A stretch of 64,000 nt of DNA from an uncultured Clostridium sp. GTDB lineage: Bacteria; Bacillota; Clostridia; TANB77; CAG-508. The notes beneath the pieces were generated by a model that saw nothing but the letters and a program-made list of their open reading frames with translations, did no database searches and was not told the origin of the DNA. Shown piece after piece: positions 17,475 through 36,629 of this stretch. Positions within the stretch are counted from its first letter, which is position 1; every line of letters starts with the position of its first letter. The stretch lies in NCBI GenBank assembly GCA_947565445.1, contig CANOGC010000002.1, positions 4,631 to 68,630 on the forward strand, read 5' to 3'. A program made the position numbers and the translations under genes.

Positions 17475-17617
17475 AAGGAAATAGTATATAAATATCCACG
17501 AACCGTCGCCATTCCCCAATGAAACTGTACAAAATGTGTAAACACATTTTGACGGTTTCTATTGGTCCCCACTTATGGCTCCGAGATTCTTCGTGGGTAT
17601 TTATATACTATTTCCTT
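17475..17617. repeat. Copy A of a roughly 140-bp structured repeat family. The conserved core is ccacgaaccgtcgccattccccaatgaaactgtacaaaatg…cattttgacggtttctattggtccccacttatggctccgagattcttcgtgg, inside copy-specific complementary arms.
   Basis: There are four copies, at 17475, 31862, 35531 and 36490. The arms and the central hairpin covary. Confidence 0.7.
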
Positions 17618-17743
17618 AACAATAATCTAAGTATATCAAAAAGCAAATTTTTTTACAATAGAGACTATACATTTTACAAAAAATCCGATATAATAAAAAT
17701 AGACGTTAAAATTCGGCAAAATTCTACGTAAAGGAGAATAAAT

Positions 17744-19162
17744 ATGTTTCGCAAATTAAAAGAAGAATGTGGAATATTTGGTATATATTCTATGGAAAAT
17801 GAAGCAGAATTAGCAAGCATCACTTGTGCAGGGCTTTCAAGCTTACAACATAGAGGAGAAGAGGCATGTGGAATTGCAGTAAATAGTGGAGGAGTAGTTT
17901 CATATCATAAAGACGTAGGGCTTGTTTCAAGTGTATTTAAACCACATATAGTAGATAGCTTACCAAAAGGAAAAATATCAATTGGGCATGTTCGTTATTC
18001 AACAACAGGAGCACCTAAAAAAGAAAATGCACAACCAATTGTTACAAGATATGCAAAAGGAAATTTAAGTATTGTACATAATGGAAACCTTGTAAATGCA
18101 ATGGATTTAAAAGAAGAACTACAAAATGCAGGAGCCATTTTTAATTCAACAAGTGATACAGAAGTTATAGCATACCTAATTGCAAGAGAAAGGCTAAAGA
18201 CTCATTCAGTAGAAGAAGCAATTAAAAATGCAGTAAAATACATAAAAGGAGCATACTCATTATTAGTAATGTCATCTAAAAAACTAATTGCTCTAAGAGA
18301 TCCACAAGGATTTAGACCATTGTGTATGGGTAAACTTGGAGATGATATTGTTTTTGCATCAGAAAGTTGTGCACTAGATACTATTGGTGCAGAATTTGTA
18401 AGAGATATTGAACCAGGAGAAATGGTAATTGTAACTGATAATAAAGTAACATCTACATTCTATAGTAATGAAAAAAATGATGGATTATGTATTTTTGAAT
18501 ATATATATTTAGCAAGACCAGATTCAACAATAGATGGATTAAATGTTCATAAATTTAGAAAAGAAGTAGGAAAATACTTAGCTCGTCAAGCACCAGTAGA
18601 TGCAGATATTGTAGCAGGTGTTCCAGACTCTGGAAATGATGCGGCACTTGGATATTCAAAAGAATCTAAAATACCATATGACATGGTATTTATAAAAAGT
18701 AAATACATAGGAAGAACATTTATCCTTCCAACACAAGCACAAAGAAAAGCAAAAGTAGCACTAAAATTAAACCCAATTAAAGAAAATGTAAAAGACAGAA
18801 AAATAGTATTAGTAGATGATTCTATTGTTAGAGGAACTACTATTACCAGAATTGTTCAAACATTAAAAAAAGCAGGAGCAAAGGAAGTACATTTACGTAT
18901 TGCTTCACCTGCATATACAGATATTTGTTATTTTGGAACTGATGTCGCAGACAAAAAGAGTTTAATTGCAAATAATAAAACAGTAGAACAAATAAGACAG
19001 GAAATAGGAGCAGACTCACTAGAATATTTGAGCATGGAAAGTTTATTAGAAATTGCAAAAAAATCAAAAAGAGGTGGATTTTGCACAGGATGTTTTACTG
19101 GAAAATATCCAATAGATGTGCCAGATGAAATACAAAAAGAAAGATTTGAAAAAATATTTTAA
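17744..19162 (+). CDS. purF: Amidophosphoribosyltransferase PurF.
   Basis: It has the CGIFGI N-terminal nucleophile region plus a PRTase domain, 472 aa. Confidence 0.9.
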   Translation: MFRKLKEECGIFGIYSMENEAELASITCAGLSSLQHRGEEACGIAVNSGGVVSYHKDVGLVSSVFKPHIVDSLPKGKISIGHVRYSTTGAPKKENAQPIVTRYAKGNLSIVHNGNLVNAMDLKEELQNAGAIFNSTSDTEVIAYLIARERLKTHSVEEAIKNAVKYIKGAYSLLVMSSKKLIALRDPQGFRPLCMGKLGDDIVFASESCALDTIGAEFVRDIEPGEMVIVTDNKVTSTFYSNEKNDGLCIFEYIYLARPDSTIDGLNVHKFRKEVGKYLARQAPVDADIVAGVPDSGNDAALGYSKESKIPYDMVFIKSKYIGRTFILPTQAQRKAKVALKLNPIKENVKDRKIVLVDDSIVRGTTITRIVQTLKKAGAKEVHLRIASPAYTDICYFGTDVADKKSLIANNKTVEQIRQEIGADSLEYLSMESLLEIAKKSKRGGFCTGCFTGKYPIDVPDEIQKERFEKIF

Positions 19163-19177
19163 AAAGAGGTAGGTAAA

Positions 19178-20779
19178 ATGAACACAAAATATGTATTTGT
19201 AACAGGAGGAGTTGTATCAGGACTTGGAAAAGGAATCACTGCAGCTTCACTTGGAAGATTGCTAAAAAATAGAGGATATAAAGTAACAATCCAAAAGTTT
19301 GACCCATATATTAATGTAGATCCAGGGACAATGAGCCCATTTGAACATGGAGAAGTTTTTGTAACAGATGATGGAGCAGAAACAGACTTGGACTTAGGAC
19401 ATTATGAGCGTTTTGTAGACGAAAATTTAACAAAAAATTCTAGTATTACTACTGGAAGAATTTACTCTAATGTAATTGAAAAAGAAAGAAGAGGGGATTA
19501 CTTAGGAAGAACAGTCCAAGTAATACCTCATATTACAAACGAAATTAAAGAAAACATATATAGTTTTGAAAATGATGATATTGATGTAGTTATTACTGAA
19601 ATTGGAGGAACTGTAGGAGATATAGAGGGGTTACCTTTCTTAGAGGCGATTCGTCAAATTGGGTTGGAAAAAGAACCAGAAGATGTAGCATATATCCATG
19701 TTACTTTATTACCATACATATTTGGCTCAAACGAAATAAAATCTAAACCTACACAACATTCCGTAAAAGAACTACAAAGCTTAGGAATTAAGCCAGATAT
19801 TCTAGTATGTAGAACAGAAACAGACATACCAGAAAGTGTAAAAGACAAACTAGCTCTATTTTGTAATGTACGTAAAAGCCGTGTTATTCCAAATAAAACA
19901 GCAGACAACCTATATGCTGTACCACTAATGCTAGAAGAAGCAGGTCTTGCAAGAGAAATATGTGAAAAACTACATTTAGATAAAAAAGAACCTAATAATA
20001 GTGAATGGGAAAAAATGATTGAAGATATTAGAAAAATAGATGATGTAAAAACAGTAAATATTGCAATAGTAGGAAAATATATTCAATTAGAAGATTCATA
20101 TCTTTCTGTTGCAGAAAGTGTTACACATTCAGGGTTTGCAAACCATGTTAAAACAAAAGTTACATTTATAGATTCCGAAACTGTTACTAAAGATAATGCT
20201 AAAGAAATACTACAGGGACTAGATGGAATAATTGTGCCAGGTGGTTTTGGAAACCGTGGAATAGAAGGAAAGATTCAAACAATACGTTATGCAAGAGAAA
20301 ATAACATACCATTTTTAGGAATTTGTCTTGGTATGCAAATGGCAGTTGTAGAATTTGCAAGAGATGTATTAGGAATACAAGATGCAAATTCAGCAGAATT
20401 TGATGAAATCTGTAAAAATGCAGTTATTCATATTATGGATGATCAAATAGGAATTGACAAAAAAGGTGGAACTATGAGGCTTGGTGCATATCCATGCAAA
20501 ATAAAAGAAGGAACTTTAGCACATAGTATTTATGAAAAAACAGATATATCAGAAAGACATAGGCACCGTTTTGAATTTAATAATGAATATAAACAACAAG
20601 TTGAAGATGCTGGAATGATATGTTCAGGAACTTCACCAGATGGAAGATTAGTAGAAATTGTAGAAATACCATCACATAAATTCTTCATTGCAGGACAATT
20701 TCATCCAGAATTTAAATCGAGACCAAACCGTCCATCACCATTATTTAAAGCATTGGTTAAGGCTGCAAAAGGAGAATAA
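19178..20779 (+). CDS. pyrG: CTP synthase PyrG.
   Basis: It is full length (533 aa) and has the GICLGMQ glutamine amidotransferase motif. Confidence 0.9.
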
Positions 20780-20924
20780 GAATAAAATTATAAGAGCATT
20801 CATAAAATTAAAAAAATGCTCTTTTTTGTACTGTAGGAATTTCTAAAATTTTTTACGGTTTCTACCGCTTAAAAGTTCTTAAATTAGGTTTTTGTGAAAT
20901 TTATGTGAAATTTAGCAAACAGTA

Positions 20925-20953
20925 TTGACAATTGCTAATAAAAGGTATAAATT
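20925..20953 (+). promoter_or_regulatory. SigA-type promoter of groESL (-35 ttgaca, AT-rich -10).
   Basis: The ttgaca at 20925-20930 is followed about 16-17 bp later by a tataaat-like box. Confidence 0.45.
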
Positions 20954-35380: not shown

Positions 35381-35530
35381 AAATAATATGCCTATATTTG
35401 TAAAAGAAGAAGATATACTAAAACCATGTGGAGGTATATATTTAACAGATGAAATAAAAACACAATTTGAAGAAATTGTAGGGGGAGAACGAGTAAATGT
35501 GATAGAGGAATAGAAATTATATGATATAAA

Positions 35531-35675
35531 GCTATAAATCTATAAAAATATCCACGAACCGTCGCCATTCCCCAATGAAACTGTACAAAATGTGTAAACA
35601 CATTTTGACGGTTTCTATTGGTCGCCCACTTATGGCTCCGAGATTCTTCGTGGAGATTTTTATAGATTTATAGCT
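35531..35675. repeat. Structured repeat family, copy C.
   Basis: The arms are agctataaatctataaaaatatccacgaa / ttcgtggagatttttatagatttatagct. Confidence 0.7.
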
Positions 35676-35773
35676 AAAAAAGAAAAACATCTTATAAATC
35701 TTCACAAATTAGACACAGAGGCAATGTATAATGTATAAATAATATTTCTTAAAGTAACGGAGAGTGATAAGAT

Positions 35774-36454
35774 ATGAATAATGTAACAGTTCTTGTTGTT
35801 GATGATGAATCTAGAATGAGAAAATTAATTAAGGATTTTTTAGTACAAAAGGAATTTCAAGTTATAGAAGCAGAAGACGGTGAAAAGGCTTTAGAGGTAT
35901 ACCATGAAAACCAAAAAGAAATAGGGCTAATCTTGCTAGATGTAATGATGCCAAAACTTGATGGATGGTCTGTATTAAGGCAAATTAGGCAAGAATCTAA
36001 AGTTCCAATTATAATGCTAACTGCAAGAGGGGAAGAGCAAGATGAATTATTTGGCTTTGAACTAGGTGTAGATGAATATATATCAAAACCATTTAGCCCT
36101 AAAATATTAGTAGCAAGGGTAGAGGCTATTTTAAATAGAACAAGAGGAAGTAAAAACGAAGTTAAGGACTATGGTGGAATCGAAATTGATGTAGATGGTA
36201 GAACTGTAAAAGTGGATGGAAAAGAAATAGAAATGAGTTTAAGAGAATATGAGCTATTAAAGTATTTAGTAGATAACCAAGGAATTGCACTATCAAGAGA
36301 TAAAATTTTAAATAATGTATGGAATTATGATTATTATGGGGATTCAAGAACAATTGATAGCCATATAAAAAAGATAAGACATAAGTTAGGTAAAAAAGGA
36401 AAATATATTGAAACAATGAGAGGCGTGGGATATAAATTTGAAATTAAGAAATAA
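35774..36454 (+). CDS. OmpR-family response regulator.
   Basis: It has a receiver domain (DDES…D…K) plus a winged-helix output domain. Confidence 0.85.
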   Translation: MNNVTVLVVDDESRMRKLIKDFLVQKEFQVIEAEDGEKALEVYHENQKEIGLILLDVMMPKLDGWSVLRQIRQESKVPIIMLTARGEEQDELFGFELGVDEYISKPFSPKILVARVEAILNRTRGSKNEVKDYGGIEIDVDGRTVKVDGKEIEMSLREYELLKYLVDNQGIALSRDKILNNVWNYDYYGDSRTIDSHIKKIRHKLGKKGKYIETMRGVGYKFEIKK

Positions 36455-36489
36455 GGCTTGCAATTTCAAATGTACATAGATAATAGTAT

Positions 36490-36629
36490 ATAAATATCCA
36501 CGAACCGTCGCCATTCCCCAATGAAACTGTACCAAATGTGTAAACACATTTGGACGGTTTCTATTGGTCGCCCACTTATGGCTCCGAGATTCTTCGTGGA
36601 GATTTATATACTATTATCTACTTATAGTG
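36490..36629. repeat. Structured repeat family, copy D (between the response-regulator and histidine-kinase genes). The central hairpin carries the compensatory pair ccaaatg/catttgg.
   Basis: The arms are agataatagtatataaatatccacgaa / ttcgtggagatttatatactattatct. Confidence 0.7.

Follow-up and report, generated by a model that had tools for sequence, protein, structure and literature searches.

The window analysed here comprises 64,000 nt of an uncultured Clostridium sp. (assembly GCA_947565445.1, contig CANOGC010000002.1, positions 4,631 to 68,630 of the forward strand) and contains four copies, A to D, of a hairpin-forming repeat (Table 1). Copy A lies between the divergent genes purN (Formyl_trans_N, - strand) and purF (+ strand), with a promoter-like site of purF downstream of it at 17666-17694. 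Copy B is located between an S4-domain gene and dnaE, 27 nt before the dnaE ATG at 32030. Copy C lies ~15 nt past the true dnaE stop, and copy D separates a response regulator from a histidine kinase. These gene contexts agree with an earlier description of the repeats made from the letters of the window (the initial annotation).

The copies were located by a 28-nt core word (CCGTCGCCATTCCCCAATGAAACTGTAC), which has exactly four matches in the window (17503, 31888, 35559 and 36505, all on the + strand) against none expected from shuffles; the four annotated copies are therefore real. When aligned, they have a mean column identity of 83% and a near-identical core of ~87 nt, and each copy (~145 bp) forms one long imperfect rod-like hairpin. 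Predicted folding energies were -62 to -69 kcal/mol on the + strand for the four copies (z -10.6 to -13.7), and nearly equal values of -62.5 to -65.8 kcal/mol were obtained on the reverse strand. The initial coordinates were right within a few bases for A, B and C, and those of D (36490-36629) were off by ~10 nt. The arms had been described as perfectly self-complementary and different in each copy. They do differ between copies and are complementary within each; 'perfectly' was a slight overstatement, since the 30-bp arms of copy A consist of 29 Watson-Crick pairs and one U·G, and one A·G mismatch is common to copies C and D. At copy B a weaker, imperfect inverted repeat reaches out to 31850-32010. 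Both reported changes in the central hairpin were found: the apical hairpin of copy D reads CCAAATG...CATTTGG, and copy B has GCTTGCGC where GTGTAAACAC stands otherwise. Any reading frame within the element is shifted by a 2-nt indel in the apical hairpin, and the element is therefore non-coding, as had been claimed.

Orthologous regions of relatives were gathered via DnaE homologues, and the loci or contigs compared with the window are given L-numbers. In L073, L074, L076 and L079, no insertion is present at site B, C or D. Relatives at 85-90% DnaE identity have an S4-gene/dnaE junction of 20 nt, a dnaE/regulator junction of ~80-200 nt and a regulator/kinase junction of 2-4 nt, and arms and core are absent from all three. 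The spacing between response regulator and histidine kinase is 2-10 nt in all relatives, and the window pair is split by copy D. In L077, at 98% DnaE identity, sites B and C each hold an element and site D does not; the kinase region of L077 is too diverged to give a clean empty site for the target duplication of copy D. A comparison of insertion sites among strains had been suggested with the initial annotation, and by this comparison B, C and D, being empty in relatives, are polymorphic. The orthologue of copy B at L013:4310-4459 has arms that differ from those of the window but still match each other, and its apical allele is also different. Orthologues of copy C in L077 and L013 carry a CC..GG apical variant.

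The dnaE open reading frame (ORF) of the window ends at 1116 aa, and nearly all of 120 homologues are 1125-1228 aa long. Its frame is shifted at ~35365 by a 1-nt insertion relative to L077 and L013 (TTCTTCTTTCGG against TT-TTTTTCTGG).

Element architecture and family spread

Further copies were sought with an exact 20-mer in one genome per species. This yielded 31 further copies, all in two metagenome-assembled genomes (MAGs) labelled 'uncultured Clostridia bacterium', and one more match that was due to chance. The mouse-gut MAG MGBC121045, which is close to the window (93-97% nucleotide identity), contains at least 12 copies, and the MAG BRZ_GB bin27 (hereafter BRZ), with coding DNA 74-78% identical to that of the window, contains at least 19. 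The family is thus not limited to the present locus, a restriction that had been named as refuting the initial proposal. All 33 full copies are intergenic. Rfam contains no such family: at gathering and permissive E-value thresholds, the window, one BRZ locus and the elements alone gave chance-level matches only. A metagenome scan with an 18-mer gave 44 loci, all chance matches without extended similarity. No match was obtained in a scan of a viral collection or in a plasmid and phage BLAST with a 203-nt consensus. Many Logan contigs break within the element, for example 46-99 nt inside it upstream of purF, and starts or ends inside the element are frequent among the Logan/ENA contigs L078 and L082-L099 (L078 runs from B to C). 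The repeat fragments short-read assemblies of the host organism.

In BRZ copies, similarity runs ~30-35 bp past the arms on either side, out to defined termini. The complete element measures ~205-215 bp and is of nested symmetry. Its outer terminal inverted repeats, read in the better-preserved BRZ copies, are 5'-GTTA[A/C][A/T]GTTCAG[A/T]CTA... and ...CTGAAC[A/T][G/T]TAAC (GTTACAGTTCAG...). Inside them lie short asymmetric sub-terminal flanks, followed by the near-perfect inner inverted repeat of 25-34 bp that forms the arms. These enclose an asymmetric, GC-richer core of 87-95 nt, itself an imperfect hairpin. The blocks inserted at C (~35515-35695, ~180 bp, immediately past the true dnaE stop) and D (~36455-36668, ~214 bp) exceed the hairpin in length, and part of the right flank of copy D is similar to the BRZ outer flank. 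The window copies are therefore taken to be elements of this kind whose outer ends have decayed.

Direct target-site duplications of 8-9 bp, differing in sequence from copy to copy, were found in at least 10 BRZ copies (examples in Table 1) and in L076, a relative at 85% DnaE identity, where an element at 16294-16466 has termini as in the BRZ copies and an 8-bp duplication, AATATTTC. Transposition into intergenic DNA with duplication of 8-9 bp of target, polymorphic between relatives, is shown by these sites. An ancient orthologous insertion near purN, common to the window and BRZ, was considered and rejected because the BRZ copy lies elsewhere, with its own target duplication and a different downstream gene.

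The element is shorter than 300 bp (145-215 bp), has no coding capacity, carries terminal inverted repeats, duplicates its target and occurs as dispersed polymorphic copies, as expected of MITEs (miniature inverted-repeat transposable elements). That option, one of those offered in the initial annotation, is borne out by the terminal repeats, the 8-9-bp target duplications and the sites empty in relatives. The repeats are probably copies of such a non-autonomous DNA transposon, belonging to an AT-rich lineage of uncultured gut Clostridia. Its outer ends would be recognised by a DDE-type transposase acting in trans to mobilise it. The sole transposase in the window is that of an IS30-family insertion sequence at ~10845-12087 (- strand; HTH_38 and rve, 354 aa). 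Its 26-bp terminal inverted repeats, GAAAATTG(T/C)AATATTAATTGCACGTT, are unrelated to those of the repeat, and it was ruled out as the partner.

A scan of the window for inverted repeats revealed a fifth element, at 368-526, which shares with the main family only the arm type and the base motifs CCGT... and ...TTGGCT.... It belongs to a sister family, a second type of hairpin MITE with AT-rich arms. Its relatives are L025:138-434, which bears an extra insert of ~130 bp, and L076:16294-16466. Core-less or internally deleted relatives were also encountered. In the core-less BRZ copy L028:7888-7986, outer flanks and arms join as a perfect palindrome; L076:8690-8783 is a one-ended remnant whose perfect 25-bp hairpin has a loop of 5 nt; and L026:2349-2365 is an internally deleted remnant of ~55 bp. 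A search for arm-only palindromes in the window and loci gave one convincing case, L028, and the core was never found there outside such arms.

Table 1. Positions of the repeat copies and related features (window coordinates unless a locus is named)
Feature	Position	Strand	Details
Copy A	17473-17619	+	arms 17473-17502 / 17590-17619, core 17503-17589
Copy B	31857-32003	+	arms 31857-31887 / 31973-32003, core 31888-31972
Copy C	35530-35675	+	arms 35530-35558 / 35647-35675, core 35559-35646
Copy D	36477-36620	+	arms 36477-36504 / 36593-36620, core 36505-36592
Fifth element (sister family)	368-526	+	27-bp perfect arms (GAAGAAGTAGTAATATAAAATTAAAAA), different 105-nt core
Target duplication, BRZ copy	L024		TTATTATGT
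Target duplication, BRZ copy	L001		AAATGATT
Target duplication, BRZ copy	L021		GAAATTAT
Target duplication, BRZ copy	L022		TATTAATTG
Target duplication, BRZ copy	L007		CATATTATG
Target duplication, BRZ copy	L015		ATTGGATA
Target duplication, further BRZ copy			AAAAAATA
GC-rich third repeat	L008:6959-7013		
GC-rich third repeat	L003:4906-4958		
GC-rich third repeat	L020:6089-6158		
GC-rich third repeat	L077:2408-2462		

Covariation of the arms and inversion of the core

Covariation was measured in an alignment of the 33 copies, with 500 shuffles and slid alignments as controls. In this alignment 99.1% of cells pair. Both sides have changed in 22 of 55 pairs, a number reached by none of the 500 shuffles, and the slid controls did not come close; the covariation is statistically real. 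Covarying pairs comprise 18 of the 26 in the outer arms, one of three at the core base and three apical pairs. The 18 stem pairs of the mid-core never vary; five belong to helix 3 and thirteen to the inner part of helix 4, one of the thirteen showing a U-A/U·G split between subfamilies only. Being invariant, these mid-core pairs provide no evidence for or against their structure. The mid-core reads GCCATTCCCCAATGAAACTGT ... AC(A/G)GTTTCTATTGGTC(-/G/A)CCCACTTATGGCTCC. Identity between copies is 72-89% in the arms, and 100% and 99.6-99.8% in the two mid-core halves.

Complementarity of the arms is 97.9% within a copy, as against 78.3% when a 5' arm is paired with the 3' arm of another copy. The few unpaired cells include 7 G·U and 6 A·C, without wobble bias. 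Such a ratio would be given by unfiltered transitions and would not be given by a selected RNA of one strand. Because a single mismatch in a 30-bp stem barely alters stability, selection on folding cannot plausibly keep pairing at 98%. Stems that hold this level despite drift at an approximately neutral rate require a mechanism by which one arm serves as the template of its partner. The arm covariation is accordingly read here, from the aligned copies, as probable concerted evolution of inverted repeats at the DNA level, which is no proof of a functional RNA. Covariation had been put forward in the initial annotation as an argument for selection on an RNA or cruciform structure. The covariation itself was confirmed; the selection drawn from it was not supported, since covarying pairs are almost all in the arms, wobble bias is lacking, nothing varies in the mid-core and an in-situ inversion of the core has taken place.

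That inversion is seen at site A. The window and MGBC121045 (L009/L090; compared in L009) have the same arms and flanks ~96% identical there, and the 87-nt core is reverse-complemented. The L009 orientation is also found in 18 further assemblies from two strain groups. Inversion at site A is therefore rare, with the window as the odd one out, and no high-frequency flipping was observed there, all 18 having a single orientation. In BRZ the asymmetric outer flanks make it possible to read which way the core faces with respect to the element ends. Seven copies have one orientation and ten the other, with clear separation of scores, and the same arm alleles occur in both.

Apical alleles vary among orthologues at all three sites compared: GTGTAAACAC, GCTTACGC or the CC..GG form at site A, GCTTGCGC or GTGTAAACAC at site B, and CA..TG or CC..GG at site C. 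As orthologues differ in alleles that recur at other loci, exchange between copies is indicated. The arms are palindromic, so a donor can pair either way, and one event may alter orientation, allele and both arms. A more complex change is found in the orthologue of copy B at L077:2334-2530. It keeps the arms and, of the core, the 3' end; a partial core in inverse orientation, AT-rich DNA and a foreign repeat of ~55 nt stand in place of the remainder, and the 3' loop is present as an inverted duplicate. Here ATAAGTGGG is now paired with the normally unpaired CCCACTTAT, and the rearrangement appears template-switch-like. Together with the core-less L028:7888-7986 and the remnant L026:2349, it belongs to the palindrome-type rearrangements seen in the family. 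Inversion or exchange of the core has taken place in situ, which shows the arms to be subject to recombination. The initial annotation had noted neither this inversion nor the fifth element, the excess of inserted DNA over the hairpin or the outer repeats with their target duplications.

Under the MITE reading, DNA recombination or template switching would act on the long inner inverted repeat once the element is inserted. By way of heteroduplex repair or of gene conversion, within and between copies, the same process may keep the two arms of one copy identical while arms drift between copies. Homogenisation of this kind would yield seemingly 'compensatory' changes without selection on RNA folding.

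The foreign sequence at L077 represents a third repeat, GC-rich and ~55 nt long (GTAGGGGCAYCGTTTGYGGGAATAC..GACACCACTGTGCCC), which is closed by a GGGGCA/TGCCCC stem. Its copies (Table 1) are located after stop codons and, in L077, within the rearranged site-B element. It has no match in Rfam and no copy in the window.

Alternative explanations

Several observations weigh against the MITE interpretation. Clear target duplications and outer repeats are confined to the BRZ subfamily and L076. The four window copies have degenerate outer ends, with clear repeats in the inner 28-31-bp arms only, and the target duplication at D (AATAAG) is tentative. An autonomous element with matching terminal repeats was not found in the window or in the loci compared. 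Orientation at site A is uniform in the 18 other assemblies, so inversion cannot be frequent, and homogenisation of the arms by gene conversion was inferred rather than observed directly. A further difficulty is posed by the mid-core, of which 53 nt, including unpaired loops, do not vary across the 33 copies, although coding DNA is only 74-78% identical between the genomes. Exchange between copies homogenises sequences within a genome and not across lineages, which leaves constraint or recent transfer. The core is also biased in orientation: between co-directional genes it is sense in 15 cases and antisense in 3 (two-sided binomial p ~0.0075; orthologues counted once), in a small sample confounded with replication direction. 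Outer-flank orientation in BRZ is unbiased (3 vs 5). A purely selfish, DNA-only model explains neither the invariance of the mid-core nor the orientation bias. Together they point to an extra, strand-specific constraint on the mid-core, which may be a protein-recognition or an RNA module.

The view of the initial annotation, that a cis-acting structured RNA module is spread by a MITE and that its hairpin is under selection at the RNA level, draws on these same two observations, and the unbiased outer flanks in BRZ sharpen the contrast with the sense bias. By this account, a rod with C-rich internal loops (UCC, UCCCCACUU, UCCGA) would bind protein or RNA, or set the processing or stability of flanking cistrons. 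It is also favoured by a U·G pair that subfamily 1 has fixed at columns 60/91 of the alignment (the opposite strand would have A·C), by three compensated apical pairs and by the position of copies B and D within operons. The sense bias loses force through its confounding with replication direction. The near-equal numbers of G·U and A·C mismatches in the arms, the inability of stability selection to hold 30-bp stems at 98% pairing and the lack of any covariation in the conserved mid-core argue against it. So do the flipped core at orthologous site A, the three antisense copies, the lack of an Rfam family and the lack of any promoter-like or terminator-like site in the core. An intrinsic terminator was ruled out, as no T-run follows the hairpin. 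An RNA module of this kind, and with it the proposed action of the loops, is regarded as doubtful.

A combined model was also considered, in which a MITE carries a conserved strand-specific core (RNA or protein-recognition) that is re-oriented or swapped via the inner repeats, with selection setting the sense orientation. This mobile 'flip-cassette' is judged unlikely. If true, it would be a transposon-borne, orientation-adjustable regulatory module, unlike classical MITEs or fixed-locus invertons.

Of similarly low probability is a nested insertion, in which a younger mobile core would have homed, in either orientation, into the centre of an older palindromic MITE skeleton of flanks and arms. 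The core does look far younger (100% identity, against 72-89% for arms and flanks), occurs in both orientations relative to the flanks, and differs in orientation and apical allele between orthologous copies. Core-less forms exist (L028:7888-7986 and the hairpin L076:8690-8783), and different cores are found in the same arm type (window 368-526 and L076:16294-16466). However, relatives lack both arms and core at B, C and D, so the two arrived together, and the core was not found outside these arms in the window or the loci compared. The single clean core-less copy is equally explained by deletion between 5-bp direct repeats (AATAT), and other internally deleted remnants exist (L026:2349). Nor would nested insertion explain the continued complementarity of the arms.

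Inversion of the core by a site-specific invertase, with phase variation of neighbouring genes, is very unlikely. Inverted repeats of 25-34 bp do surround an 87-nt segment seen both ways, including at one orthologous locus, and the arm block TATAWAAATA is nearly invariant. However, 18 assemblies from two strain groups have a single orientation at site A, both states being seen only between strains. The invertible part contains no promoter or terminator, the neighbours are housekeeping rather than surface genes, and no recombinase or invertase is consistently nearby in the loci compared. Orientation and allele change together, which is better fitted by recombination with another copy. A large serine recombinase (Resolvase and Recombinase domains, 520-531 aa) adjoins feoB, ~4 kb from site A, in sister strains (L080/L081:3340-4902 and L090:4412-6007). 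It was rejected as an invertase because the window lacks a counterpart: between a HEPN/nucleotidyltransferase pair (12132-12903) and feoB there is no ORF of recombinase size. The DNA beside feoB is strain-variable.

Movement as folded single-stranded DNA by an HUH/Y1 transposase, as in single-strand hairpin elements of the REP/REPIN-RAYT or IS200/IS605 (PATE) type, is highly improbable. The long imperfect hairpin with conserved bulges and the CGTC at the 5' edge of the core in subfamily 1 would fit it. Against it stand the direct target duplications of 8-9 bp and the terminal inverted repeats, neither of which the IS200/IS605-type class is known to make. In BRZ, CGTC reads AGTC in every copy; the element, AT-rich and ~145-215 bp long, is no 20-40-bp GC-rich palindrome; and no Y1 transposase was seen in the annotated loci. 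Compensatory changes are also reported for REPINs (PMC3116915), but the REP-like option of the initial annotation fails on the unconserved GTAG/CGTC tag and on the target duplications.

Known elements, further observations and significance

ERIC/IRU elements of enterobacteria are imperfect palindromes of ~127 bp in transcribed intergenic DNA, which form RNA hairpins and whose orientation affects mRNA fate. They are unrelated to the Clostridia family in sequence and host and lack its nested repeat architecture, and they are not known to flip in situ.

Hairpin-forming, MITE-like bacterial repeats with compensatory changes have been described before, as bcr1 (PMC3184786) and REPINs (PMC3116915). 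An architectural parallel is drawn here with the Correia elements (CREE/NEMIS) of Neisseria, in which 26-bp inverted repeats surround a conserved directional core, with a total length of ~105-155 bp (PMC2649163). Like these, the Clostridia family is non-coding, intergenic, target-duplicating and strain-polymorphic, with fragments and deletion variants. There is no sequence similarity, and the resemblance is architectural only. The target duplication is TA in CREE and 8-9 bp in the Clostridia family, and the hosts are Neisseria and a Gram-positive anaerobe, respectively. The description of CREE, unlike that of the Clostridia family, includes an integration host factor (IHF) site and promoters generated at the ends. 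The Clostridia family has in addition outer terminal repeats and asymmetric flanks, which reveal the core flips. Correia hairpins in mRNA are bound or cleaved by RNase III according to the symmetry of their ends (PMC2649163). By analogy, transcripts of the operons containing copies B and D would have to carry a ~30-bp perfect duplex, a likely RNase III substrate that could alter mRNA processing and stability.

The bcr1 repeats of the Bacillus cereus group (Firmicutes) are MITE-like, ~155 bp long, flanked by direct repeats and variable in location between strains; they are transcribed, and compensatory base-pair changes maintain a cruciform-like structure (PMC3184786). The sequences are unrelated to those of the Clostridia family, the direct repeats are 5 bp as against 8-9 bp, and core inversion, seen in the Clostridia family, is not reported for bcr1 in the text consulted (PMC3184786). 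The compensations in the Clostridia family lie in long near-perfect arms and are without wobble bias. REPINs consist of two inverted arms and a spacer, form a long hairpin with common compensatory changes, are intergenic and replicate in the genome (PMC3116915). Their arms (REPs) are conserved and the spacer is variable, whereas in the Clostridia family the arms are variable and the core is invariant. They are without terminal repeats and target duplications, both present in the Clostridia family, and need a Y1 (RAYT) enzyme; their CGTC/GTAG tag is not conserved in the Clostridia family. By its unrelated sequence and different target duplication, the Clostridia family falls outside the Correia, bcr1 and REPIN families.

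Two further features of the window genes were recorded. In purN (16880-17447, - strand; also in L009 and L024) an apparent +1 frame change is needed near codon 9. A ribosome-binding site and ATG at 17447 open the frame MYNIVVFAS, the canonical first strand of PurN, and the remainder (GSGTTLQSVIDAI...) is in the +1 frame (...TTT GCT TCA C|GGA AGT GGA...). The arrangement is kept in MGBC121045 and in BRZ, which is 75% identical; changes to the upstream frame are conservative (MYNLVIFAS), and UCA-CGG is a candidate site of programmed +1 frameshifting rather than an error. Genes for DUF2207, MutS2/Smr, FeoB, RecD2 and Peptidase_U32 (the last in three pieces) are split into adjacent ORFs at 598-2542, 2600-4331, 12959-14849, 39830-41646 and 49739-52141, which suggests an indel-rich assembly or ongoing gene decay.

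The repeats described here represent a previously undescribed MITE family with a sister family, a real but fairly ordinary find. They add this family and at least one sister family to the poorly known uncultured gut Clostridia. The breakage of assemblies at the element and the splitting of operons, which separates dnaE from the S4-domain gene and the regulator from the kinase, have consequences for annotation and may have some for expression. The family is also a caution to RNA discovery by covariation, being a clean case in which the 'compensatory' substitutions of a repeat hairpin are better explained by concerted evolution of inverted repeats than by RNA selection. That the core has a strand-specific role is a possibility of modest interest. 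If the invariant core and its orientation bias reflect function, the family would provide a tractable case of a regulatory module spread by transposition.

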